Sequence record: OZ035747.1
Reading direction: 5' to 3' (one strand)
DNA length: 45,051 nucleotides
Source of the DNA: Vectrevirus T145P2
Shown here in pieces: positions 331-40,622 of this stretch (its first letter is position 1; the number at the start of each line of letters is the position of its first letter). The translations under genes were made by a program, and so were the position numbers. The notes below the pieces were generated by a model, which worked only from the letters and a program-made list of their open reading frames with translations, searched no databases and was not told the origin of the DNA.

Positions 331-774
331 ATGCATAGATGGTGTGAATCTCAAGGTTATACCATCTTACCTTCTGGTGTCATCCTTTCAAAGGGTGGCA
401 CCCCTCTCAAACCATTCAAGGCGGGTAGGGGTTATTTAGCAGTTAAAATTAAAAATAAAGAAGGTAAATGGCGTAATGTCTATGTTCATCAATTAGTGGC
501 TTATAAGTATTTACCTAAAACTAATAATGAAGTAAACCACAAAGACGGCGATAAGCACAACAATGATGTTAGCAACTTGGAGTGGGTAACAAGAAGCGAG
601 AATAACTATTTAAAATGCAATGGAAATGATAGGAGTGCCTTAAATAGCTATTTAGCAAGATTAAAAGATTGCTTCTTGCAAGGTAAGGGTGTAGCAGAAA
701 CCGCTAGACTTACTGGTAAAAGTGAACCAAGAGTTTCTTCTCTCTTTAAGGAGTGGCGAAATGGCAAAGGCTAG
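331..774 (+). CDS. HNH homing endonuclease with C-terminal HTH-like region
   Basis: ATG 331 after GAGGAG; motif EVNHKDGDKHNNDVSNLEWVTRSEN typical of HNH_3 nucleases; gene visibly AT-rich relative to neighbours; overlaps large terminase start by 14 nt. Confidence 0.8.
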   Translation: MHRWCESQGYTILPSGVILSKGGTPLKPFKAGRGYLAVKIKNKEGKWRNVYVHQLVAYKYLPKTNNEVNHKDGDKHNNDVSNLEWVTRSENNYLKCNGNDRSALNSYLARLKDCFLQGKGVAETARLTGKSEPRVSSLFKEWRNGKG

Positions 775-2659
775 AGAATCACAGGCAGAGGCATTAAAGC
801 GGTGGGAAAACCTTAAAGAACTACAAGACACTTTTAAATATACAGCGGAAGGTTTGCTTCTCTTTGCAGATACAGTTATTCATAACTTAATTGCAGGCAA
901 CCCTCATCTGATTCGTATGCAGGCGGATATCTTGAAGTTCCTATTTTACGGACACAAGTACCGCCTCATCGAAGCGCCTCGTGGTATCGCTAAGACAACA
1001 CTATCAGCAATCTATACGGTATTCCGTATTATTCATGAACCGCATAAGCGTATCATGGTTGTGTCCCAAAACGCCAAGCGAGCAGAGGAAATCGCAGGTT
1101 GGGTAGTTAAAATCTTCCGTGGCTTAGACTTTCTTGAGTTTATGCTGCCGGATATCTACGCTGGGGACCGTGCATCCGTTAAGGCGTTTGAGATTCATTA
1201 CACCCTACGTGGTAGTGATAAGTCTCCTTCTGTATCCTGTTACTCAATCGAAGCAGGTATGCAGGGTGCTCGTGCTGATATTATTCTAGCGGATGACGTA
1301 GAGTCGATGCAGAATGCTCGTACGGCAGCGGGCCGTGCCTTGCTTGAGGAACTGACTAAGGAGTTTGAATCTATCAACCAGTTTGGGGATATCATTTACC
1401 TTGGTACACCTCAGAACGTAAACTCTATCTACAACAACCTACCTGCTCGTGGTTACTCTGTTCGTATCTGGACTGCGCGTTACCCTTCAGTAGAGCAAGA
1501 GCAATGTTATGGCGACTTCCTTGCACCTATGATTGTGCAGGATATGAAGGACAACCCAGCACTGCGCTCAGGGTACGGGTTGGATGGTAATAGTGGTGCA
1601 CCTTGTGCCCCTGAAATGTATGATGATGAAGTCCTGATTGAGAAGGAAATCTCTCAGGGTGCTGCTAAGTTCCAGCTTCAGTTCATGCTTAACACTCGCA
1701 TGATGGATGCTGACAGATACCCATTACGCCTGAACAATCTAATCTTCACCTCGTTTGGTACAGAGGAAGTCCCTGTGATGCCTACGTGGAGTAATGATTC
1801 CATAAACATCATTGGTGATGCACCTAAGTATGGTAACAAGCCTACGGATTTCATGTACAGACCTGTAGCTCGCCCATACGAATGGGGTGCTGTCTCCCGC
1901 AAGATTATGTATATTGACCCTGCGGGTGGCGGTAAGAATGGGGATGAGACGGGTGTGGCTATCGTATTCCTGCACGGCACATTCATTTACGTGTATCAGT
2001 GCTTCGGTGTGCCGGGTGGATACCGCGAATCGTCCCTGAATCGCATTGTGCAGGCCGCAAAGCAGGCGGGTGTTAAAGAGGTATTCATTGAGAAGAACTT
2101 TGGTCATGGCGCGTTTGAGGCGGTAATTAAGCCGTACTTTGAACGAGAGTGGCCTGTAACGCTGGAAGAGGATTACGCCACCGGACAGAAAGAGTTGCGT
2201 ATCATTGAGACGCTGGAGCCGCTCATGGCAGCTCATAGGCTTATCTTCAATACAGAGATGGTGAAGTCAGACTTTGAGTCGGTACAGCACTACCCGCTTG
2301 AACTACGCATGTCCTACAGTCTTTTCAATCAAATGTCGAACATAACGATTGAGAAGAACAGCCTCCGGCACGATGACCGCCTAGACGCCCTGTATGGCGC
2401 TATACGGCAATTAACTTCTCAGATAGACTATGACGAGGTTACACGGATTAATCGCCTCAGAGCGCAGGAGATGCGCGATTACATCCATGCTATGAACACA
2501 CCTCATCTACGCAGGGCAATGCTATATGGAGATTACGGTACTGAGCGAAGAGTGACCAACACTTCCGTAGCGATGCAGCAGCGAGTTTACGGGCAGAACT
2601 ACCGAAATAAATCGGCAAGCAGAAATACACTTTCTGCAAGGATTTCAAGGACTTATTAA
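761..2659 (+). CDS. terminase large subunit (T7 gp19-like)
   Basis: AAGGAG then ATG 761; 632 aa; ATPase region RGIAKTTL...ILADDVESM and nuclease region DPAGGGKNGDETGVAIV. Confidence 0.93.
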   Translation: MAKARESQAEALKRWENLKELQDTFKYTAEGLLLFADTVIHNLIAGNPHLIRMQADILKFLFYGHKYRLIEAPRGIAKTTLSAIYTVFRIIHEPHKRIMVVSQNAKRAEEIAGWVVKIFRGLDFLEFMLPDIYAGDRASVKAFEIHYTLRGSDKSPSVSCYSIEAGMQGARADIILADDVESMQNARTAAGRALLEELTKEFESINQFGDIIYLGTPQNVNSIYNNLPARGYSVRIWTARYPSVEQEQCYGDFLAPMIVQDMKDNPALRSGYGLDGNSGAPCAPEMYDDEVLIEKEISQGAAKFQLQFMLNTRMMDADRYPLRLNNLIFTSFGTEEVPVMPTWSNDSINIIGDAPKYGNKPTDFMYRPVARPYEWGAVSRKIMYIDPAGGGKNGDETGVAIVFLHGTFIYVYQCFGVPGGYRESSLNRIVQAAKQAGVKEVFIEKNFGHGAFEAVIKPYFEREWPVTLEEDYATGQKELRIIETLEPLMAAHRLIFNTEMVKSDFESVQHYPLELRMSYSLFNQMSNITIEKNSLRHDDRLDALYGAIRQLTSQIDYDEVTRINRLRAQEMRDYIHAMNTPHLRRAMLYGDYGTERRVTNTSVAMQQRVYGQNYRNKSASRNTLSARISRTY

Positions 2660-9064: not shown

Positions 9065-9406
9065 CCTGATGGATGGCTTAGGTTAGACTTAGTGGGCTAC
9101 CTTAGTTAAAGCCTTAGTGCTTAGCTTAGTATCAACTTAGTAGTGTACCTTAGTAAGTCTTAGTGTCTTCTCTTAGTGATTGCATAGCTAAAGCTATAAG
9201 ATGCAATTAGGTCGCGGTCGGTAGACCGCTAATAAGAAGTAATAGTAATAAGATGCAGTAGGAGGAACACCAGAAACCTAGCCAACCTAGTCTATCCTAG
9301 CTCTGTATCTATTGCTTTCCTTAGTCTCACATGTTAGACAACCTAGGTTTATCTTAGTAGTTGTGACATGTATCACATAAATAATCTATCTTAGTGCGAT
9401 TTAGTG

Positions 9407-9435
9407 TTGACATAGGCAGTTAACAGGTATACATT
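9407..9435 (+). promoter_or_regulatory. candidate host sigma70 early promoter
   Basis: TTGACA - 17 nt - TACATT. Confidence 0.55.
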
Positions 9436-9658
9436 AGCAATCAGTCGGGAGCGACATTAAACACTCAGGGTGAATGATAGAGAGCGTCCTTAACTATCCG
9501 GCCTAGCTACTGAAGCCGTTAAACAATGTTAGATAGTGGAAGATGGCGCAAGCATAACCTACCACGATAAACCAAGGTTAGCGCAATGCTCTTTAACAAT
9601 TTGCTTAGTGTAACCTGTGTATGCCGTGGTTAATTACTTATTGAATGAGGGATTAACT

Positions 9659-9775
9659 ATGAATTACGAAGAAATGTATGAAGTCTATTTCGACTCATTA
9701 GATGAAGGAGAAGAAGCATTAACCTTCGCTGAGTTTATGGAGGCTTTATGGAGTTTCTATCATGACTCTAAATAA
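9659..9775 (+). CDS. small acidic early protein (38 aa)
   Basis: ATG 9659; first ORF after the host promoter; not in ORF track (<60 aa). Confidence 0.4.
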   Translation: MNYEEMYEVYFDSLDEGEEALTFAEFMEALWSFYHDSK

Positions 9776-9938
9776 CCGTGAACTATCCGTCCTCTTCACT
9801 CTGTTATGCTACATGATTCGTAACAACGAATTACTTACAGATGACGAGTTGGCACTATATCACCGCTTTCTTAACGAAGGTTGGACAGATACAGTTAACC
9901 ATAAACGTGACTTGATGAAGGAGTTAGGCAATGTATAA
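9762..9938 (+). CDS. small early protein (58 aa)
   Basis: ATG 9762; overlaps neighbours by a few nt as is common in T7-like early regions. Confidence 0.4.
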   Translation: MTLNNRELSVLFTLLCYMIRNNELLTDDELALYHRFLNEGWTDTVNHKRDLMKELGNV

Positions 9939-10140
9939 GCATGAGATTTACACGGCTTGCAATAAATCGGCTAAGGTTATCATTGAGATGTACAAGGCAG
10001 AATGTCAGGCGTACAACCTCAATGATGGTACCGAGATGTTTTATCTTCAGTTTGAAAGCAAGTTATCTCACAAACGAGTGATTAGCAGTCTTAATCAACA
10101 CTCTTTAGATTGGGAAGAAGTGAACAGCAATAAACTTTAA
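9931..10140 (+). CDS. early hypothetical protein (69 aa)
   Basis: ORF track; ATG 9931. Confidence 0.55.
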   Translation: MYKHEIYTACNKSAKVIIEMYKAECQAYNLNDGTEMFYLQFESKLSHKRVISSLNQHSLDWEEVNSNKL

Positions 10141-10148
10141 ATTAACTA

Positions 10149-10177
10149 TTGACAACCACGGCATACAAGGTTACATT
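10149..10177 (+). promoter_or_regulatory. candidate host sigma70 early promoter, twin of 9407
   Basis: TTGACA - 17 nt - TACATT, identical hexamers and AGGT before the -10 as at 9407. Confidence 0.55.
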
Positions 10178-10424
10178 AAGCATCAAGACGGCGACGTCTT
10201 TAAAAATCACGCTCTTTAACAATAGAGATTAGGCCGGGAGTATCGGTGTGAGGGATAAGGAGGCTTTCCCACAATTAAACTGGTGGCAAAAGGATTGCCC
10301 AGCTTTATAGCCCAGTTATGGATAGCAATAGCGTAAGGATGGCAGCACACCCGCGAGTCTAATCTCTAGCTCTTTAACAATCTGGCTAGTGCCTTGGTAG
10401 GCTAACTACTTACTAAGGTGAACT

Positions 10425-10637
10425 ATGAACTACTGCGACATCGCTCACGAATTACGCATGGAACGTGAGAAACAAGAAAGGCGGATTATCAAGAAGATGG
10501 CTGTACTGCTTGCACACTATAAGGCAGACAAACAGCCAACACATGATGAGTTCGTTGACTTCTGTAACATGTATCTTAATGTGAGTAAGGCCACTGGTTA
10601 CAGATGGCTTAAAGCACTGAATGATGGAGAATTGTAG
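10425..10637 (+). CDS. early hypothetical protein (70 aa), possible small DNA-binding protein
   Basis: AAGGTGAACT then ATG; C-terminal SKATGYRWLKAL resembles a helix-turn-helix. Confidence 0.55.
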   Translation: MNYCDIAHELRMEREKQERRIIKKMAVLLAHYKADKQPTHDEFVDFCNMYLNVSKATGYRWLKALNDGEL

Positions 10638-10736
10638 TAATAAGCCAGCTTAATAGCTGGCCTATCAAGGCACTAACCTAGCTCTTTAACAATCTGGTTT
10701 GTGTCTTGATAGGCTTACTAACAAAGGTGAACTATC

Positions 10737-10901
10737 ATGACTAACGCACAACGTAAACGCTATGATGCATTGCAAGAGAAACTTGCTGTTGCTTATGCCG
10801 CTTGGCAAGCTAACACAGACAAGAGCAAACACGATAAACTTTATAGTAAAGTGGTTGCAATTAATGCTAAAATAGATAAACTTGTGAATAGTATCTTATA
10901 A
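10737..10901 (+). CDS. small early protein (54 aa), predicted helical
   Basis: ATG 10737 after AAAGGTGA; followed by hairpin 10909-10924. Confidence 0.45.
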   Translation: MTNAQRKRYDALQEKLAVAYAAWQANTDKSKHDKLYSKVVAINAKIDKLVNSIL

Positions 10902-12711: not shown

Positions 12712-15339
12712 ATGCAAGACCTACACGCTATTCAACTTCAACTTGAAGAAGAAATGTTTAACGGCGGTATCCGTCGCTTTGAAGCTGACCAACAACGCCA
12801 GATTGCATCCGGTAATGAATCAGACACGGCATGGAATCGACGCTTATTGTCCGAACTAATCGCACCTATGGCGGAAGGTATTCAGGCTTACAAGGAAGAA
12901 TACGAAGGCAAGAGAGGTCGTGCACCCCGTGCATTAGCTTTCATTAACTGCGTAGGAAACGAAGTGGCAGCATATATCACCATGAAAATCGTTATGGATA
13001 TGCTGAATACAGACGTTACCTTACAAGCTATCGCTATGAATGTAGCAGACCGCATCGAGGACCAAGTACGTTTTAGCAAGCTGGAAGGTCACGCAGCTAA
13101 GTATTTTGAGAAAGTGAAGAAGTCGCTTAAGGCTAGCAAGACTAAATCTTATCGTCATGCGCACAACGTAGCGGTAGTAGCTGAGAAATCTGTTGCTGAC
13201 CGTGACGCGGATTTCTCCCGTTGGGAGGCATGGCCTAAAGACACCTTGCTGCAAATCGGTATGACCTTGCTCGAAATATTGGAGAATAGTGTATTCTTCA
13301 ATGGTCAACCTGTCTTCCTTCGTACCTTGCGCACTAACGGCGGAAAGCATGGTGTTTACTATTTACAGACCAGTGAACATGTTGGCGAGTGGATAACTGC
13401 ATTTAAGGAACATGTAGCTCAGCTCAGCCCTGCCTATGCACCTTGCGTTATACCTCCCCGCCCTTGGGTATCACCTTTTAACGGTGGGTTTCATACTGAG
13501 AAAGTAGCAAGCCGTATTCGTCTGGTAAAAGGCAATCGTGAGCACGTCCGCAAGCTGACCAAAAAGCAAATGCCAGCCGTTTATAAGGCTGTTAACGCTT
13601 TGCAGGCAACTAAGTGGCAGGTTAATAAAGAGGTTTTACAGGTTGTGGAGGACGTTATACGTCTAGACCTCGGCTATGGTGTGCCTTCCTTTAAACCACT
13701 CATCGACCGTGAGAACAAGCCAGCTAATCCAGTGCCGTTAGAGTTCCAGCACCTGCGAGGCCGTGAACTTAAAGAGATGCTAACGCCGGAACAATGGCAA
13801 GCCTTCATCAACTGGAAAGGCGAATGTACCAAGCTGTATACCGCTGAAACTAAGCGCGGCAGCAAATCGGCGGCGACCGTCCGCATGGTTGGGCAGGCAC
13901 GTAAATACAGCCAGTTTGACGCCATCTACTTCGTGTATGCACTGGACAGCCGCAGCCGCGTCTACGCGCAATCTAGCACGCTCTCTCCGCAATCAAACGA
14001 CTTAGGCAAGGCATTGCTCCGTTTTACCGAAGGGCAGCGCCTCGATAGCGCTGAGGCGCTTAAATGGTTTTTGGTGAACGGGGCTAATAACTGGGGTTGG
14101 GATAAGAAGACTTTTGACGTGCGCACCGCTAACGTGCTGGATAGTGAATTTCAAGACATGTGCCGCGACATTGCAGCGGATCCGCTTACCTTCACTCAAT
14201 GGGTGAATGCCGACTCCCCTTACGGCTTCCTTGCTTGGTGCTTTGAATATGCGCGTTATCTGGATGCACTGGATGAAGGCACGCAAGACCAATTCATGAC
14301 GCACCTCCCCGTCCATCAAGATGGTAGTTGTTCTGGTATCCAGCACTACAGTGCTATGCTACGCGATGCAGTAGGTGCGAAAGCAGTAAACCTTAAGCCC
14401 TCTGATTCTCCTCAAGATATTTATGGTGCCGTTGCGCAGGTAGTAATTCAGAAGAATTATGCATACATGAATGCAGAGGATGCGGAAACCTTCACTTCTG
14501 GCAGCGTGACTTTAACAGGTGCGGAACTGCGTAGCATGGCTAGTGCGTGGGATATGATAGGAATCACTCGCGGCCTGACCAAAAAGCCCGTAATGACACT
14601 ACCTTACGGCAGCACACGTCTAACCTGCCGTGAGTCAGTGATTGATTATATCGTTGATTTGGAAGAAAAAGAGGCCCAACGGGCTATTGCGGAAGGGCGT
14701 ACCGCCAATCCTGTACATCCTTTTGATAATGACCGCAAAGACAGCCTGACACCTAGCGCAGCTTATAACTATATGACAGCTTTAATCTGGCCTTCTATTT
14801 CGGAAGTGGTTAAAGCTCCTATAGTGGCAATGAAAATGATTCGTCAGCTTGCACGTTTCGCAGCTAAAAGAAACGAAGGCTTAGAATATCCCTTACCAAC
14901 TGGCTTCATCTTGCAACAAAAGATAATGGCTACCGATATGCTCCGCGTATCCACTTGCTTGATGGGTGAAATCAAGATGAGTCTCCAGATTGAAACAGAT
15001 GTAGTTGATGAAACGGCAATGATGGGTGCGGCTGCTCCTAACTTCGTCCATGGTCACGATGCTAGCCACCTGATTCTGACTGTATGTGACCTAGTGGATA
15101 AAGGTATTACATCCATTGCAGTCATCCATGATTCTTTCGGTACTCATGCAGGACGTACCGCAGACCTGCGGGATAGCTTAAGGGAAGAAATGGTTAAGAT
15201 GTATCAAAACCATAATGCCCTGCAAAACCTGCTAGATGTGCACGAAGAGCGTTGGTTAGTAGACACCGGAATCCAAGTACCAGAGCAAGGAGAGTTTGAC
15301 CTTAACGAAATCTTAGTTTCAGACTATTGTTTCGCATAA
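12712..15339 (+). CDS. single-subunit DNA-directed RNA polymerase (T7 gp1-like)
   Basis: 875 aa; collinear with T7 RNAP including PFCFLAFCFEY-like [27 protein letters not shown] and IHDSFGTHA motifs. Confidence 0.97.
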
Positions 15340-15413: not shown

Positions 15414-15429
15414 GTCTCACATGTGAGAC
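15414..15429. repeat. 16-bp palindrome GTCTCACATGTGAGAC, copy 1
   Basis: Perfect palindrome 3 nt upstream of promoter 15432. Confidence 0.8.
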
Positions 15430-15605: not shown

Positions 15606-15621
15606 GTCTCACATGTGAGAC
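15606..15621. repeat. 16-bp palindrome GTCTCACATGTGAGAC, copy 2
   Basis: Perfect palindrome, preceded by GGCAGACCTAGGTT also found at 8545. Confidence 0.8.
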
Positions 15622-15807: not shown

Positions 15808-17796
15808 ATGGCTATTATTCAGAATGTACCGTGTCCCGCCTGTCAAAAGAATGGACATGATATTACTGGCAACCATCTTATGATATTTGAGGATGGCGCT
15901 GGTTACTGTAACCGTGGTCACTTCCATGATAACGGCAAGCCTTATTACCATAAGCCAGAGGGTGGCATCGAGATAACCGAATTACCTATTACTGGCAATA
16001 TCAAATATACACCTTCTCAGTTTAAAGAGATGGAGAAGGAAGGGAAGATTAGCGACCCTAAGCTACGCGCCATCGCACTTGGTGGTATGCGTATGAAAGA
16101 CCGTTGGGAGGTTATGAATGAGCAAGAAAGGGCAGACCAAGAAGCAGAGTGGAAACTTGATGTTGAATGGTTCCTCACGCTTAAGCGTAAGAATCTTGTT
16201 TCCCGACACATTCGCGGCGACATTTGCGCATTGTATGATGTACGTGTCGGACACGATGAAGATGGTAGAGTCTCACGGCATTACTATCCACGCTTCGAGA
16301 AAGGTGAGCTAGTAGGCGCCAAGTGTCGCACATTACCTAAAGACTTTAAGTTTGGTCATTTAGGTAAACTCTTTGGTATGCAAGATCTTTTCGGTATGAA
16401 TACTTTGTCTCACGTGTTAGACAAGGGAAGACGAAAGGATTGCTTGCTTATTGTGGGCGGCGAACTGGATGCACTAGCAGCACAGCAGATGCTCCTTGAT
16501 TCTGCCAAGGGTACTAAGTGGGAAGGCCAGCCTTACCATGTATGGTCTGTCAATAAAGGTGAGTCTTGCCTTGAAGAGATAGTGCAGAACCGTGAGCATA
16601 TCGCCCAATTCAAGAAGATTATATGGGGTTTTGATGGAGATGAGGTGGGGCAGAAGCAGAATCAGCAAGCGGCTCGCCTGTTTCCTGGCAAATCCTATAT
16701 CCTTGAATACCCTTCTGGTTGCAAAGATGCTAACAAGGCATTGATGGCTGGCAAGGCTAAAGAGTTTGTTGATGCTTGGTTTAATGCCAAGTCATCTGAT
16801 GAAGTCTTTGGTAGCCAGATTAAATCTATCGCATCTCAAAGGGATAAGCTCAAGGCTGCACGTCCAGAGCAAGGGTTATCATGGCCTTGGCCTAAGCTGA
16901 ACAAGGTAACGCTAGGTATTCGTAAGAACCAGCTTATCATTGTAGGTGCAGGCTCTGGTGTAGGTAAGACTGAGTTCCTCCGCGAAGTGGTTAAACATCT
17001 TATTGAAGAACACGGTGAATCTGTAGGCATCATTTCTACAGAAGACCCGATGGTCAAGGTGTCCCGTGCTTTTATCGGCAAGTGGATTGATAAGCGTATT
17101 GAGTTACCGCCAACCAACGACCCGAAAGAAGACGGATACCGTGAGGTGTTCGACTACACCGAGGAAGAAGCTAACGCTGCCATTGATTATGTGGCTGATA
17201 CAGGAAAGCTATTTGTGGCTGACCTAGAAGGCGACTATTCTATGGAGAAGGTAGAGCAAACTTGCCTAGAGTTTGAGGCTATGGGCATTTCTAATATCAT
17301 CATTGATAACTTAACGGGGATTAAATTAGATGAGCGTGCTTTTGGTGGGAAGGTTGGTGCACTTGATGAATGCGTCAAACGAATTGGTACTATCAAAGAC
17401 CGACATGCGGTTACGATTTTCCTTGTCTCTCACCTTACACGTCCTCCGGCAAACCGTACCCAACACGAAGAAGGTGGCGAAGTTATCCTTTCTGACTTCC
17501 GAGGCTCAGGCGCTATCGGATTCTGGGCATCTTACGCCTTGGGGATTGAGCGTAATACAAGAGCTGAAACGCTTGATGAAAGGACTACCACGTACATCTC
17601 TTGTGTCAAAGACCGCGACCAAGGTATCTACACAGGAACCAAAGTCATGCTCAAGGGTGACATTCAGACCGGGCGTTTGAGAGAACCACAAGCTAGAACA
17701 AGGTCGTTTGATACAGGCGAAGCAAGGCAACAAGAAGTACCGGATTTACCGGACACTATAGAAGAGACAACCTTTGACGATGAACAGGAGTTTTAA
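15808..17796 (+). CDS. DNA primase/helicase (T7 gp4-like)
   Basis: 662 aa; N-terminal Cys4 zinc motif CPACQKNGHD...YCNRGH; Walker A GAGSGVGKTEF; acidic C-terminus ending DDEQEF. Confidence 0.95.
   Translation: MAIIQNVPCPACQKNGHDITGNHLMIFEDGAGYCNRGHFHDNGKPYYHKPEGGIEITELPITGNIKYTPSQFKEMEKEGKISDPKLRAIALGGMRMKDRWEVMNEQERADQEAEWKLDVEWFLTLKRKNLVSRHIRGDICALYDVRVGHDEDGRVSRHYYPRFEKGELVGAKCRTLPKDFKFGHLGKLFGMQDLFGMNTLSHVLDKGRRKDCLLIVGGELDALAAQQMLLDSAKGTKWEGQPYHVWSVNKGESCLEEIVQNREHIAQFKKIIWGFDGDEVGQKQNQQAARLFPGKSYILEYPSGCKDANKALMAGKAKEFVDAWFNAKSSDEVFGSQIKSIASQRDKLKAARPEQGLSWPWPKLNKVTLGIRKNQLIIVGAGSGVGKTEFLREVVKHLIEEHGESVGIISTEDPMVKVSRAFIGKWIDKRIELPPTNDPKEDGYREVFDYTEEEANAAIDYVADTGKLFVADLEGDYSMEKVEQTCLEFEAMGISNIIIDNLTGIKLDERAFGGKVGALDECVKRIGTIKDRHAVTIFLVSHLTRPPANRTQHEEGGEVILSDFRGSGAIGFWASYALGIERNTRAETLDERTTTYISCVKDRDQGIYTGTKVMLKGDIQTGRLREPQARTRSFDTGEARQQEVPDLPDTIEETTFDDEQEF
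17744..17766 (+). promoter_or_regulatory. phage RNAP promoter inside 3-prime end of the primase-helicase gene
   Basis: ATTTACCGGACACTATAGAAGAG. Confidence 0.7.
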
Positions 17797-17957
17797 TGGA
17801 AATTATTAAACCAGTATTGAATATCGGTATTGAGATCCTATTCATGCTTGTGATCGCAGATTATGCTGCACGATATGGATTCAAGAAAGCTGTGAAACTT
17901 ATCGTTGCATCTGGTTTTATTATGTCAATGTTCTTTATTGTAACACGCCTTATCTAG
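17796..17957 (+). CDS. small membrane protein (53 aa, two hydrophobic segments)
   Basis: AGGAG then ATG 17796 overlapping helicase stop (TAATG). Confidence 0.5.
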   Translation: MEIIKPVLNIGIEILFMLVIADYAARYGFKKAVKLIVASGFIMSMFFIVTRLI

Positions 17958-17974
17958 TGTATTTATCAGGGCTT

Positions 17975-17990
17975 GTCTCACATGTGAGAC
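17975..17990. repeat. 16-bp palindrome GTCTCACATGTGAGAC, copy 3
   Basis: Embedded in GCTTGTCTCACATGTGAGACAGGC, which can form a ~12-bp stem. Confidence 0.8.
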
Positions 17991-18029
17991 AGGCTCTTAT
18001 TAAGTACATTAAATAACTGGAGGTTGATT

Positions 18030-18752
18030 ATGTATAACTTAGTGTTGAATGTAGGTGACTTTGTACGCAACATCAAGAAAGATTCAAGTCGCTATCTTTG
18101 CCGTGGTGTTGTAACCTTTGTAGGTGAGAACCTGTATCATGTAGAATATCACAGTGGTGTTAAGCAGTATTACCACAAGAGGACAGCACATAAATATCTT
18201 GAAAAGATTGTAGAGGTAAACAATCAATGTAAGTGCATACATGATGAGGTTTGCGATAAGTGCAAACGTCAGGCAATTAAAGTCTTTACCTTTGCTCAAC
18301 GCTATGGTTCTATGTATGGTGCTGGTCACAAGACCGTTGCAGAAGCAGCTTGGAAGACATTGCAGTTTGAGAGTTCAAATGGACGACGCACCACACTCAA
18401 GAAAGAGCGTCGCAATGTAATCACTGGTAAGACTCAAAGTGAGATGATTAAGCAATGTGGCACTGCATTAGGTGTTACACAGTTTAATACTCGTGCATTG
18501 GGTAAATCCACAGGACAAGCTATGGTAAAGATTGGCGAAGCCATGATGCATCCAAATGTACCTGTGCGAATCATGGATGTTGACCATGCAATCACAGAAC
18601 ATGGTACACCACGGCGTGTAGCTAATAATCATTTTGCCGACACTATAGAAGGTATTATCCGTAAGCAAGAGTTGAAAGGTCTTCACATCTTGAATGGTGA
18701 AGAGTTACTGTACCTCCCTATCGTTACTGAAGAAACCTACGTGAATATCTAA
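18030..18752 (+). CDS. hypothetical protein with Cys cluster (240 aa)
   Basis: GGAGG then ATG 18030; CKCIHDEVCDKCKRQ zinc-binding-like cluster; no family recognised. Confidence 0.7.
   Translation: MYNLVLNVGDFVRNIKKDSSRYLCRGVVTFVGENLYHVEYHSGVKQYYHKRTAHKYLEKIVEVNNQCKCIHDEVCDKCKRQAIKVFTFAQRYGSMYGAGHKTVAEAAWKTLQFESSNGRRTTLKKERRNVITGKTQSEMIKQCGTALGVTQFNTRALGKSTGQAMVKIGEAMMHPNVPVRIMDVDHAITEHGTPRRVANNHFADTIEGIIRKQELKGLHILNGEELLYLPIVTEETYVNI
18631..18653 (+). promoter_or_regulatory. variant phage RNAP promoter-like site inside the 18030..18752 gene
   Basis: ATTTTGCCGACACTATAGAAGGT. Confidence 0.45.
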
Positions 18753-18762
18753 GGAGTCAATC

Positions 18763-18981
18763 ATGACTAAGGTATTAATTTATATGCGTGGACCTCATAA
18801 ATGCTATGCAGTTGTAGCACCAGATGGTGTTAAGCCCTATGGTACTTCAAAAGGATTGGCATTAATAGGTGCTAGTCGTAGTGCAAGTTTCCAAATGGAA
18901 CTTTCTGGTCATTGGACTGAATGGCAATTCCGTGAGGATTTTAAAGTCATTGGCAGCTTCATGGTGAAATATGCAGAATAA
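18763..18981 (+). CDS. hypothetical protein (72 aa)
   Basis: ORF track; GGAG upstream. Confidence 0.55.
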   Translation: MTKVLIYMRGPHKCYAVVAPDGVKPYGTSKGLALIGASRSASFQMELSGHWTEWQFREDFKVIGSFMVKYAE

Positions 18982-19180
18982 ACATAGTCTTAGAATGTTC
19001 GATGGTCATGAAGACCTGCAAGCCAAGATTACTAACCAAGCCTTCCTGTTCGCACAGTTAACTATGGCTGAGGCCAAGAAGAATAGTCTCACTCGTGAAC
19101 AGGTTATCAAGGAGGCCACTTGGGAACCACACCAAGGTAAATATATGGGCCACAAATTAACTGTAACACGCAGTCGATAA
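18971..19180 (+). CDS. hypothetical protein (69 aa)
   Basis: ORF track; overlaps previous stop. Confidence 0.55.
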   Translation: MQNKHSLRMFDGHEDLQAKITNQAFLFAQLTMAEAKKNSLTREQVIKEATWEPHQGKYMGHKLTVTRSR

Positions 19181-19238
19181 GTCAAGGGTTGTCCAACGTG
19201 TTGGACAGCCTTTCATCATATTGATTGGGAGGTATTAA

Positions 19239-19391
19239 ATGACTAAGTTTACTATGCAAGACCTCATTAAATTACGTGATGAAATAGAATCACCGGAAGT
19301 TAATACAGAGTTTCACTACATTGATCCACGAGATAAACGAGAGATTCCTGATTATCAGATTGAGACGGAGTTAATGTATGAAGATTATTGA
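19239..19391 (+). CDS. small acidic hypothetical protein (50 aa)
   Basis: GGGAGG then ATG 19239; overlaps DNA polymerase start by 14 nt. Confidence 0.4.
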   Translation: MTKFTMQDLIKLRDEIESPEVNTEFHYIDPRDKREIPDYQIETELMYEDY

Positions 19392-21924
19392 TTGGAAGAA
19401 GGAAGCAGAAGGCCGTATCCTAGTGATGGATGCAGAGGCTAAAGGCCTGCTGAATGCTATCCGCTATGGTCATCGTGAAGATGTGCATATCATTTGCTGC
19501 ATGGACTTGCTTACTACCGAGGAGTTTCTCTTCTTTGACCCGTATGAGATGCGTGACCCTGAAGCAAGAGAACACCTGAAGGAATGGGAAGGTCATCAAG
19601 ATGGTGACTTGGTTGATGGTGTTAACTTCCTGAAGCACTGTGAAGCTATTGTGTCGCAGAACTTCCTAGGGTACGACGGCCTTCTATTTGAGAAAGCATT
19701 CCCTGATATCTGGAAAGGCTTTAACTATACCGAGAGACGCGGCAAGGGCAGACTCCGCGCTGACCTGTGTCCGGTACGCGTCATGGATACGCTGGTCATG
19801 AGTCGCCTGTTAAACCCCGATAGACGCCTCCCTCCGCAAGCATACGCCAAAGGCATGGGTAACGTCGCCCCTCACTCAATTGAGGCGCACGGCATCCGTA
19901 TAGGCCGTTATAAGCCGGAGAACGAGGATTGGTCTAAGCTAACTGACCACATGGTTCACCGTGTACGGGAGGACGTGGCGATAGGCCGTGACTTGTTCCT
20001 CTGGCTCTTTAACGGGGAATGGATGGAGCACAAACGCCGTGGCGTGAATAAACGCACTGGCCTAGGTATTGAGACAGCCTTCCACATGGAGTCCATTGTG
20101 GCGCTGGAGATGAGCCGTCAGGCCGAGCGTGGATTCCGTCTGGATATAGATAAAGCATTAGCACGATGCGAGGAATTGGACGCTAAGATTGATGAGACAG
20201 TCGCAGCGTTCCGTCCGCACATGCCTATGCGTATCAAGTCTAAACCTTTTAAACCGGAAGAAAAGAATGAAGTATGCCAACGCGCAAATGAGTATGGAGC
20301 TAGCAACAATATACCTACTGTCCTTGACCCCTCTCACTTTCTTCACGCAGAGAGACGAGGAGATCGCAAGACAGTATGGAGTGTCACTACTAAGTCTGGT
20401 GATTGGTCGGCTAGCGTCAAGAAAGACTTTCCTCACCTTAGAGGAAACCGTAATGACACGCCAAGCATCAAGTGGATTGGCGCTTACTCGCCTGTTACTT
20501 TCGAAGAGATTCCCTTGGGTAACAGGGATACAGTTAAGCAAGTGCTCTATGATTATGGATGGAAAGGTGTTGAATTTAACGATACCGAGCAAGCGCATCT
20601 CGATGAGCATGGCGTATTACCCAAGCCTTGGAGTGGGAAGATAAATGAAAAGTCCCTTACTTTATGGCAAGAGAGAGCCGCACGTGAAGGTAAAACAGTC
20701 CCTGATTGGTGCTTGGGTATCGCTGCATGGTACATACTCGTATCCCGTCGTGGTCAGATCCTCAACCGTGGTGACGTTGAAGCCTTCGACCAGAAGGGGG
20801 TGTGGCCTTCGCAAGCTGGTATACGAAAGTGTCGCGGCCTTGTACCTGTAGCATTTAACAAGGAGTTAGGAATCAATGCGCAGCAATACTACGAAAGGTA
20901 CGGATGCTGGCCTACGTCAGACAAGGATGACGGAGAATGGCGTGTGCCAGCTATTGCTATTAGTATTGGAACTTCTACGTTCCGTATGCGTCATCGTAAC
21001 GTGGTTAATATTCCTGCCCGTGGTTTGTATCCTTTACGTGATTTATTCATAGCAGGTAAAGGTAAGCTAATCCTTGGTTGTGATGGTGCTGGTCTTGAAC
21101 TACGTGTACTGTCTCACTTCATGAATGATCCTGAATATCAAGATATTGTACTGCATGGTGACATTCACACCCATAATCAAATGAAGGCTGGTCTTCCTAA
21201 GCGTGACATGGCGAAGACATTTATATATGCCTTCCTATATGGGTCTGGTATAGCTAACCTTGCAGCAGTATGTGGTGTTACTGAGGAAGAAATGGAGGAA
21301 GTTGTGGCAAGATTTGAGGTTGAACTACCATCTCTTGCACGTCTTCGTGAGAATGTTATCGCACAAGGTAACAAGTTTGGCTACCTACAAGCACCTGATG
21401 GTCATTGGGGTCGCATCCGTATGTCTGGTGGTGAACTTAAAGAGCACACTATGCTTAACGTACTACTCCAGATGACTGGTTCTCTGTGTATGAAATACGC
21501 ATTGGTCAGAGCGTTTGCAGTGATGCGCAAGGAAGGTGTGGCCTTAGATAGCATGGGAAACCCTTGCGGTATAGCTAACGTGCACGATGAAATCCAGATG
21601 GAAGTCCCTGAAGATGAGGTCTTGTATCTCAACTACGACTTGCCTTTCACCTTAGAAGGGTTCGAAACAGAGAAGGCTGCTGTGAAAGCAGTGTTCGATG
21701 CAGAGGAGAAACGTGTTCATGTGGATTCTGAAGGACGTATGTGGTCTGCTGCAAATCTCGTTAGTGTTGATGCTGATGCTGGTGTACTTCATTGCCAGCG
21801 TCGTTATCACCGTGCAGGGCATATCATTGCCGATGCAATGACTTGGGCTGGTCATTATTTGAAGATGCGTTGTCCGATGGCAGGTGAGTATAAGATTGGT
21901 GCAAGCTGGAAGGAAACACACTGA
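19378..21924 (+). CDS. DNA polymerase, family A (T7 gp5-like)
   Basis: 848 aa; GCDGAGLELRVLSHFM...GDIHTHNQ...KTFIYAFLYGSG parallels the T7 DNAP polymerase motifs; N-terminal exonuclease region. Confidence 0.96.
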   Translation: MKIIDWKKEAEGRILVMDAEAKGLLNAIRYGHREDVHIICCMDLLTTEEFLFFDPYEMRDPEAREHLKEWEGHQDGDLVDGVNFLKHCEAIVSQNFLGYDGLLFEKAFPDIWKGFNYTERRGKGRLRADLCPVRVMDTLVMSRLLNPDRRLPPQAYAKGMGNVAPHSIEAHGIRIGRYKPENEDWSKLTDHMVHRVREDVAIGRDLFLWLFNGEWMEHKRRGVNKRTGLGIETAFHMESIVALEMSRQAERGFRLDIDKALARCEELDAKIDETVAAFRPHMPMRIKSKPFKPEEKNEVCQRANEYGASNNIPTVLDPSHFLHAERRGDRKTVWSVTTKSGDWSASVKKDFPHLRGNRNDTPSIKWIGAYSPVTFEEIPLGNRDTVKQVLYDYGWKGVEFNDTEQAHLDEHGVLPKPWSGKINEKSLTLWQERAAREGKTVPDWCLGIAAWYILVSRRGQILNRGDVEAFDQKGVWPSQAGIRKCRGLVPVAFNKELGINAQQYYERYGCWPTSDKDDGEWRVPAIAISIGTSTFRMRHRNVVNIPARGLYPLRDLFIAGKGKLILGCDGAGLELRVLSHFMNDPEYQDIVLHGDIHTHNQMKAGLPKRDMAKTFIYAFLYGSGIANLAAVCGVTEEEMEEVVARFEVELPSLARLRENVIAQGNKFGYLQAPDGHWGRIRMSGGELKEHTMLNVLLQMTGSLCMKYALVRAFAVMRKEGVALDSMGNPCGIANVHDEIQMEVPEDEVLYLNYDLPFTLEGFETEKAAVKAVFDAEEKRVHVDSEGRMWSAANLVSVDADAGVLHCQRRYHRAGHIIADAMTWAGHYLKMRCPMAGEYKIGASWKETH

Positions 21925-22040
21925 TGGACAGGTTTGATGTTGTTTGCCTATTCTCTATCTTCTTTCTTATATTCCTTATGCTTGCTTGCTATGGAAGTAT
22001 GCGATTAGGTATACCTGATGAAGAGGAGGGTTACGATTGA
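21924..22040 (+). CDS. tiny hydrophobic ORF (38 aa)
   Basis: ATG overlapping DNAP stop; VVCLFSIFFLIFLMLACYG. Confidence 0.35.
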   Translation: MDRFDVVCLFSIFFLIFLMLACYGSMRLGIPDEEEGYD

Positions 22041-22138
22041 TGCAAACTGCTTTTATCATTCTTGGGATCATATTATTTATGGTAGTATTCTGGGCTTTCT
22101 CTGGCATTGACCCAGATTGTGATGGTAACTACGACTGA
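22040..22138 (+). CDS. tiny hydrophobic ORF (32 aa)
   Basis: ATG overlapping previous stop; AFIILGIILFMVVFWAF. Confidence 0.35.
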   Translation: MQTAFIILGIILFMVVFWAFSGIDPDCDGNYD

Positions 22139-24089: not shown

Positions 24090-24105
24090 GTCTCACGTGT
24101 GAGAC
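24090..24105. repeat. 16-bp near-palindrome GTCTCACGTGTGAGAC, copy 4
   Basis: One central change relative to the other copies; 15 nt upstream of promoter 24121. Confidence 0.7.
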
Positions 24106-40558: not shown

Positions 40559-40575
40559 TACCTAACTCAAGGCTT

Positions 40576-40591
40576 GTCTCACATGTGAGAC
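40576..40591. repeat. 16-bp palindrome GTCTCACATGTGAGAC, copy 5
   Basis: Same extended context GCTTGTCTCACATGTGAGACAGG as copy 3. Confidence 0.8.
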
Positions 40592-40622
40592 AGGTCTTTA
40601 TGATAGGCACTATGGAGGAATT

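Follow-up and report, generated by a model that had tools for sequence, protein, structure and literature searches.

The stretch of DNA from Vectrevirus T145P2 analysed here (sequence record OZ035747.1; 45,051 nucleotides (nt), called the window as a whole) carries two small genes, gp9.5 and gp10, directly behind the primase-helicase gene, which an earlier note made from the sequence alone had listed as unassigned. Both are genuine genes of the middle region, the DNA-metabolism block, of a K1E-type phage. In the best joint explanation, to which we give a probability of about 35%, gp10 would serve as an accessory adaptor that binds nucleic acid and gp9.5 as an accessory protein of the inner membrane. 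Judged by its distribution and alignments, gp10 is a signature gene of the SP6-like phages (Molineuxvirinae) made of three modules.

Phages of the SP6, K1-5 and K1E type are used in capsule-targeted therapy and are a source of RNA polymerases, and most of their middle genes are without an assigned role. The gene called gp10 in K1E, and gp11 in SP6, is one of the few small genes found at a constant position throughout the Molineuxvirinae. Its partner could be informative on host takeover, since we know of no homologues of T7 gp0.7, gp2 or gp5.7 in SP6, K1-5 and K1E phages. The useful gains of the analysis are the domain dissection of gp10, the evidence that this gene is dispensable, a map of promoters and hairpins, and the nature of gp9.5 as a clean insertion or deletion.

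Identity of the two genes

17796-17957, + strand: gp9.5 (K1E gp9.5, PHROG 15806), 53 amino acids (aa)
18030-18752, + strand: gp10 (K1E and K1-5 gp10, SP6 gp11, PHROG 6703), 240 aa

Neither gene is new. Indeed, the K1E record AM084415 annotates both open reading frames (ORFs) as gp9.5 and gp10 with no function given, and the copies in the window are near-identical to annotated ones, so that they represent hypothetical proteins that are already catalogued. Their matches in PHROGs are confined to families of unknown function (gp9.5: E 4.3e-38, residues 1-53 of 53; gp10: E 1.6e-115, residues 1-240 aligned to profile positions 1-228 of 229), while Pfam, NCBIfam and PADLOC gave no meaningful match for either protein and a literature search by locus tag, accession, PHROG id and gene name found no mention of them. 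Both genes are thus still unassigned, as the earlier note had it, and of the searches that it had proposed, neither the profile searches with both proteins nor the structure searches with gp10 led to a characterised family, the barrel fold recognised in gp10 being a generic one.

gp10 accompanies the primase-helicase gene in SP6-like phages

The ATG of gp10 at 18030 is preceded by GGAGG at 18019-18023, and the program-made list of ORFs places the start at a TTG at 18024. A first search returned 332 homologues, with 100% identity to a protein of Escherichia phage ULINTec4, and an exhaustive profile search among 1.84 billion representative proteins retrieved only 54 cluster representatives. By tblastn, gp10 is present in 138 phage records. 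Query coverage is 80% or more throughout, and identity falls to about 33% in the most distant homologues. The hosts of these phages are Escherichia, Klebsiella, Proteus, Salmonella, Pectobacterium, Citrobacter, Lelliottia and Raoultella. All the records are SP6-like, and every one that was checked for taxonomy belongs to the Molineuxvirinae.

The position of the gene is equally constant. In 29 of 29 inspected loci, which span Vectrevirus, Zindervirus, Acadevirus, Eracentumvirus, Axomammavirus and Tuodvirus, gp10 lies directly 3' of the primase-helicase gene, with a small membrane ORF in between where one is present, and the order helicase, gp10-like gene, small genes, DNA polymerase is kept throughout. 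Over its full length gp10 is 80-84% identical to K1E and K1-5 gp10 and 41% identical to SP6 gp11; all of these follow the primase-helicase gene as in the window, whereas the K1E and K1-5 proteins have only 227 aa owing to a different linker that is 13 aa shorter. As an observation apart, Salmonella phage vB_SalP_SE29 (locus L028, record positions 9217-10897) carries a partial tandem duplication of the region, in the order N-terminal fragment of gp10, a second C-terminal part of the helicase (annotated as hypothetical) and a full gp10 homologue.

Three modules of gp10

18030-18215, + strand: N-terminal SH3/Tudor/KOW-like five-stranded beta-barrel, aa 1-62
18228-18263, + strand: Cys4 knuckle CKCIHDEVCDKC, aa 67-78, at the start of a variable helical linker (aa 63-120)
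18390-18749, + strand: conserved C-terminal alpha/beta domain (C-domain), aa 121-240

In AlphaFold modelling, a shallow alignment allowed only the N-terminus to be modelled well, while 57 diverse sequences gave a mean predicted local distance difference test score (pLDDT) of 83 for gp10. The barrel, which varies between phages, is predicted with a pLDDT of about 96 and the C-domain with about 90, and the linker falls to 42-72. Among Vectrevirus loci, the C-domain keeps 93% identity with a ratio of nonsynonymous to synonymous polymorphism (pN/pS) of 0.14, as compared with 65-68% identity and a pN/pS of 0.39-0.46 for barrel and linker (0.46 for the N-domain).

The 240-aa ORF does contain the CxC...CxxC spacing that had been noticed in it (C67-x-C69-x5-C75-x2-C78). 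The label 'Cys-cluster protein' attached to it at that time, however, picks out its least conserved part, the parts conserved in the family being the SH3/Tudor-like N-domain and the C-domain. Indeed, of the 57 family members 26 have the complete CxCx5CxxC motif, 5 only its CxC part and 26 none of it, and its region is modelled at low confidence. From this alignment, the Cys4 knuckle, a candidate zinc finger, is an optional feature of the linker rather than a defining feature of gp10.

The C-domain is marked by the motif R155-x-x-G158-[KR]-[ST]-T161-x-x-A164, followed by P175, D185-H186 and the tail PIVTEETYV. Across the 57 members G158 and P175 are invariant, while R155, T161, A164, D185, H186, G217 and P230 are nearly so. 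Residues 117-165 are strongly basic (isoelectric point (pI) 11.5).

As for the barrel, its predicted fold matches NdhS, PsaE, ribosomal proteins, chromatin Tudor domains, the KOW domains of Spt5/NusG, CarD and the C-terminal domain of UvrD/PcrA. The model of gp10 thus contains a five-stranded Tudor-like barrel of the type by which CarD, TRCF and UvrD interact with RNA polymerase, but the identity of gp10 to such barrels (NdhS, Spt5/NusG KOW, CarD, UvrD/PcrA) is only 15-24%, with no match at the level of sequence families. On the basis of the model, the fold is generic and gives no specific hint at a partner.

The C-domain, judged by the model, is without a recognised structural relative. A Foldseek search against the PDB with the whole model, rather than with the C-domain alone, gave no match for this domain at E <= 0.001, and comparison with solved structures, Pfam, NCBIfam and PADLOC gave none either. 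Two profiles run against the sequences of solved structures returned matches at chance level only (titin, a retroviral Pol, FitA and a designed protein).

Several candidate relatives of gp10 or its C-domain were considered and set aside. The genes for gp4.7 and gp5.3 flank the DNA polymerase gene in T7, and homology to either protein reached an hhalign probability of at most 0.2%. Ribbon-helix-helix (RHH) proteins such as FitA, Arc, Mnt and CopG have an alpha1-loop-alpha2 element, with a loop that contacts DNA phosphate, and this element can be aligned with the helix, G-[KR]-S-T loop and helix of the gp10 motif. However, gp10 differs from them by a further helix and by the larger size of its alpha/beta domain, and the fold-search matches listed include no RHH protein. 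The FitA match is not significant (E 0.54 over 36 residues), and hhalign gave a probability of 0.3% against an Arc/Mnt/CopG/ParD alignment assembled by hand. A zinc finger followed by a helix-turn-helix as in I-TevI has no counterpart among the fold-search matches, and the Cys motif is optional.

The C-domain is found by itself in other phages, in stand-alone proteins of about 100 aa. Among the predicted viral structures of BFVD it matches uncharacterised proteins of 89-151 aa, with template modelling scores (TM-scores) of 0.5-0.8 when normalised to the target, from Citrobacter phage CR8, Proteus phage RS1pmA, Pectobacterium phage Peat1, Ralstonia phages RsoP1EGY and RSB3 and Pseudomonas phage MPK7. 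In Pseudomonas phage Draal01 the stand-alone C-domain lies 3' of primase, helicase and ligase genes, in Klebsiella Drulisvirus between the genes for the capsid and tail tubular protein A, and in the 80-kb Rheinheimera phages (Barbavirus) upstream of PhoH. As far as these neighbourhoods tell, a link of the C-domain to replication genes is common, not universal.

gp9.5 is an accessory gene restricted to Vectrevirus

All the features by which the 53-aa ORF had first been picked out are present, namely two hydrophobic segments, an overlap with the helicase stop and a good ribosome-binding site. In particular, its ATG at 17796 shares the last A of the helicase stop (TAATG), and AGGAG lies 5 nt upstream, at 17786-17790. 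The hydrophobic segments comprise about residues 6-21 and 33-53 (Kyte-Doolittle maxima of 2.46 and 2.51) and are separated by the basic loop RYGFKK. From these features gp9.5 is predicted to be a two-segment inner-membrane protein that is translationally coupled to the helicase via TAATG. K1E gp9.5 is 98% identical over the 53 aa and has the same overlap with the helicase stop, with no material difference.

The family is narrow. Among 5.8 billion protein clusters that were searched, only 33 are homologous to gp9.5 and all are at least 75% identical; the relatives are nearly all 53 aa long and mostly come from contigs that are as long as these phage genomes (about 44-45 kb). gp9.5 can thus be described as a genus-restricted orphan family of Vectrevirus. 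Of the phage records, 50 contain it, as compared with 80 with a DNA-level match to the region and 138 in which gp10 is encoded.

Alignment of loci with and without the gene shows that gp9.5 is cleanly present or absent as a cassette of 159 bp, which is bordered by the helicase stop on one side and by a conserved hairpin on the other. The helicase gene ends in ...GAGTT in all aligned loci and the common sequence restarts at TAGTGTATTTATCAGGG, so that the cassette is essentially the gp9.5 ORF itself. Where the gene is present its frame is always kept, with a pN/pS of about 0.3-0.6 in nine loci and conservative changes (V/I/L, E/D, M/A). These patterns of substitution indicate that gp9.5 is an accessory gene under purifying selection.

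The same slot is occupied differently in other phages. Proteus phages have there a 58-aa ORF with two hydrophobic segments and a TAATG overlap (L017:3753-3929 in the Pm5460 type; L021:3004-3180 in PM 116, where it is without annotation), and BLASTP found no alignment between it and gp9.5. Since two unrelated ORFs of this kind sit in one slot, the junction appears to host small membrane ORFs repeatedly. In SP6 (L027, about 2355-2410) the sequence, read by eye, holds only a 17-codon ORF with a TAATG overlap, and in four other genera the gap is just 63-75 nt. For T7, no small membrane protein encoded at the corresponding position is known to us.

A class II holin was also considered for gp9.5 and rejected. 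Such holins have two transmembrane segments, a charged hydrophilic C-terminal tail and a place in the lysis cassette, whereas gp9.5 ends hydrophobically in ...FFIVTRLI with no charged tail and is encoded in the replication block.

gp10 is probably dispensable on laboratory hosts

The reference SP6 gp11 (L027:2501-3112) has a 29-aa in-frame deletion of the residues equivalent to 132-160, including R155 and G158, while a Salmonella-associated homologue that is otherwise near-identical has the full sequence. T-G borders the deletion on both sides in the protein alignment. Moreover, gp10 is split or truncated in L010, in L015 and in the K1E record KY435490 (two pieces), and BFVD lists a 68-aa K1E fragment of it; phage KAW1A4500 has a 143-aa protein that is probably a truncated gp10 as well. 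The SP6 deletion and the split copies suggest, at the level of sequence, that gp10 is probably not needed for growth on laboratory hosts.

Possible roles of gp10 and gp9.5

In the joint reading proposed here, gp10 would act as a non-essential accessory adaptor. The helix N-cap motif R-x-x-G-[KR]-[ST]-T, in the segment of pI 11.5, would let the C-domain bind nucleic acid, probably by contacts to the phosphate backbone, while the variable barrel would attach to a protein, of either host or phage, that takes part in transcription or replication. gp9.5, in turn, would insert into the inner membrane with its basic loop in the cytoplasm and alter some property of the envelope, which could be of advantage on some hosts only. 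Several points weigh against this proposal. Neither by homology nor by fold does the C-domain match any family that binds DNA or RNA, the helix-turn-helix families of Pfam included, and its resemblance to RHH proteins is below significance. SH3-like barrels serve many unrelated functions, which makes the docking partner of gp10 a guess. The Drulisvirus copy of the C-domain, amid late structural genes, fits badly with a role linked purely to replication, and some of the split gp10 copies may be sequencing errors in database records. Finally, membrane insertion, topology and expression of gp9.5 are all predictions. Counter-defence, shutoff of RNA polymerase and superinfection exclusion each fit part of the data, and computation cannot separate them.

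The first of these alternatives, unlikely but the best of them, is that gp10 is a counter-defence protein whose barrel tracks a variable component of host defence while the C-domain inhibits or decoys it, so that the gene would matter only on hosts with that defence. Dispensability in laboratory strains would be expected of such a protein, as would an N-domain that diverges fast and looks mosaic next to a conserved C-domain, and the shuffling of the C-domain among unrelated phage genomes and neighbourhoods points the same way. However, the fixed position of gp10 in all 138 SP6-like records is more like that of a core-lineage gene than of a swappable one. PADLOC holds nothing similar, though it covers defence rather than anti-defence proteins.

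A somewhat less probable alternative concerns gp9.5, which could be a superinfection-exclusion protein that blocks the entry of DNA from secondary phages. The earlier note had suggested superinfection exclusion or the targeting of the host envelope, and both are guesses. T4 Imm and further small phage proteins with a part in exclusion are embedded in the membrane and made before lysis, as is predicted for gp9.5, and the size and membrane location of this accessory two-segment protein recall Imm in particular. There is, however, no sequence relationship to Imm-type proteins and no homology to known exclusion proteins, as the family is an orphan of its genus, and other roles fit equally well, such as countering membrane-bound abortive infection, timing lysis or anchoring the replisome.

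A bolder version of the joint reading, to be held only as a speculation of about the same low standing, would take the C-domain (R-x-x-G-x-[ST]-T ... P, about 100 aa) for an undescribed phage-specific fold that binds nucleic acid or phosphate across the Autographiviridae and some myophages. Its fusion to a fast-evolving Tudor-like barrel in SP6-like phages would then be a new adaptor for host takeover or counter-defence, and the junction between helicase stop and hairpin a dedicated slot in which unrelated mini membrane proteins are swapped.

It is improbable that gp10 shuts off or redirects host transcription, with its Tudor-like barrel placed on the beta subunit of host RNA polymerase, as in CarD, Mfd and UvrD/PcrA, and with the role of T7 gp2 or gp5.7. 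The gene does lie in the middle region, where the host-shutoff genes of T7 sit, but NdhS, PsaE, ribosomal proteins and chromatin Tudor domains match the barrel equally well or better, as befits a generic fold, and Pfam CarD_TRCF_RID matches none of the 57 members at E <= 0.1. Furthermore, the deletion in SP6 would be unexpected for a shutoff factor common to the entire subfamily.

Far less credible still, and largely refuted, is the view of the C-domain as a degenerate P-loop NTPase or a fragment of a terminase-like ATPase. By eye, TRALGKSTGQA resembles the deviant Walker A motif of terminases, and single members gave weak matches to AAA_10 (E 0.012) and Terminase_6N (E 0.066). With 57 queries, however, matches of this strength are expected by chance; the segment that precedes the motif is predicted to be helical instead of a strand, 120 aa are too few for a RecA-like fold, and hhalign against the large terminase of the window itself gave a probability of 0.07%. 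Of the 57 members, 34 have R at the position of the Walker lysine, 16 have K and 7 some other residue, which effectively rules a P-loop out. Finally, that one or both ORFs are untranslated chance ORFs is scarcely tenable: both have strong Shine-Dalgarno sequences and conserved frames under purifying selection, and gp10 has homologues as distant as about 33% identity and a confident fold prediction.

Promoters and hairpins around the two genes

17744-17764, + strand: phage RNA polymerase promoter ATTTACCGGACACTATAGAAG, in the 3' end of the primase-helicase gene
18631-18651, + strand: variant phage promoter ATTTTGCCGACACTATAGAAG, in the gp10 codons F-A-D-T-I-E-G
17968-17997, + strand: hairpin with a 13-bp stem and a tetraloop, with the palindrome GTCTCACATGTGAGAC at 17975-17990 followed by CUCUUAUU, between gp9.5 and gp10

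The 13-nt promoter core GACACTATAGAAG has 10 matches in the window at no more than one mismatch, as compared with 0.06 expected, and the full consensus of the window promoters is ATTTACTGGACACTATAGAAG, which begins ATTTACTG. The promoter at 17744-17764 has the exact core and one mismatch to the consensus. It encodes helicase residues D-T-I-E, and its core is invariant in nine aligned loci, including SP6-like and Proteus-phage ones. It is predicted to drive gp9.5 and gp10, from a start site that we assume by analogy with the SP6 promoter.

The variant promoter that had been proposed at 18631 within gp10 is probably real. It combines a perfect core with four upstream mismatches to the consensus. 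Of 15 Vectrevirus-type sequences, 14 keep this core (GAC ACT ATA GAA, D-T-I-E; ATA being a rare codon) unchanged even at synonymous sites, and L011 lacks it, while neighbouring synonymous positions vary. In SP6-like gp10 homologues the core is shifted four codons further on, to R-D-T-I-G (L012-L016, around 4580), so that the promoter rather than the residues appears to be conserved. It is probably functional and would drive gp10.5 and gp11.

The hairpin between gp9.5 and gp10 is conserved (55-nt fold including an outer 8-bp stem, -25.8 kcal/mol, z -7.5), and the record of phage R4596 annotates it as a terminator; it may be a putative partial terminator or another RNA element. Its core GTCTCACATGTGAGAC occurs seven times in the window against 0.03 expected, and the copies of the family are as follows:

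15414-15429: hairpin copy
15606-15621: hairpin copy
17975-17990: hairpin copy, between gp9.5 and gp10
19191-19206: hairpin copy
24090-24105: hairpin copy
40576-40591: hairpin copy
9324 and 16407: degenerate copies

The copies are intergenic, often a few nt upstream of phage promoters, and 13-bp stems are found at 17968-17997, 19184-19212 and 40569-40597. Two compensatory stem variants exist, GTCTCAC-NN-GTGAGAC and GTCCAAC-NN-GTTGGAC; both are present in the window and the second is dominant in SP6-like loci. As these variants coexist within single genomes, an RNA structure is indicated rather than a sequence-specific site, and binding of gp10 to the palindrome as a site-specific dimer is unlikely. 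A literature search for the hairpin sequence found no mention of it. One copy lies inside the primase-helicase coding sequence, at 16407-16422, with two mismatches in the window, and is perfect in SP6-like loci (L011:2376, L012:2539, L013:2542, L018-L020:2530); it could, for example, act as a signal within the gene, between its primase part and its helicase part.

Neighbouring genes and relatives of the window

722-2659: T7-type large terminase gene (Pfam)
12712-15339: T7-type RNA polymerase gene (Pfam)
15808-17796: DnaB-type primase-helicase gene (Pfam)
18971-19180: homologue of K1E gp11, 69 aa, core ...QAFLFAQLTMAEAKKNSLTREQVIK..., PHROG 5754, function unknown
19378-21924: family A DNA polymerase gene (Pfam)
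21924-22040, + strand: gp13.5, 38 aa, one hydrophobic segment and an acidic tail, PHROG 15860, overlapping the DNA polymerase stop (TGATG)
22040-22138, + strand: gp14, 32 aa, one hydrophobic segment and an acidic tail, PHROG 4539, overlapping the gp13.5 stop (TGATG)

In loci L004-L020 the 69-aa homologue of gp11 is strongly conserved and always follows shortly after gp10. The two tiny hydrophobic ORFs that the earlier note had seen behind the DNA polymerase gene are there as well, and the K1E record names them gp13.5 and gp14. Their tails end in G-(N)-Y-D, and BLASTP gave no alignment between the two. The TGATG overlaps chain them to the DNA polymerase gene, a coupling like that of gp9.5 with the helicase gene. 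At E <= 0.1, PADLOC returned nothing for gp9.5, gp10, gp10.5, gp11, gp13.5 or gp14.

Over a 1.5-kb stretch around the locus, the closest relative of the window is ULINTec4, with 98% identity, and identity to K1E, ACG-C91, CrRp3 and other Vectrevirus (Autographiviridae, Molineuxvirinae) is 88-95%. The window looks circularly permuted with respect to the K1E record, with the terminase and other large ORFs first and the early region from about 9300. In ULINTec4 (L002, 5609-9229) a gene for an HNH homing endonuclease lies just 5' of the DNA polymerase gene, and the polymerase gene itself is split in two around a putative endonuclease gene, whereas that of the window is intact.

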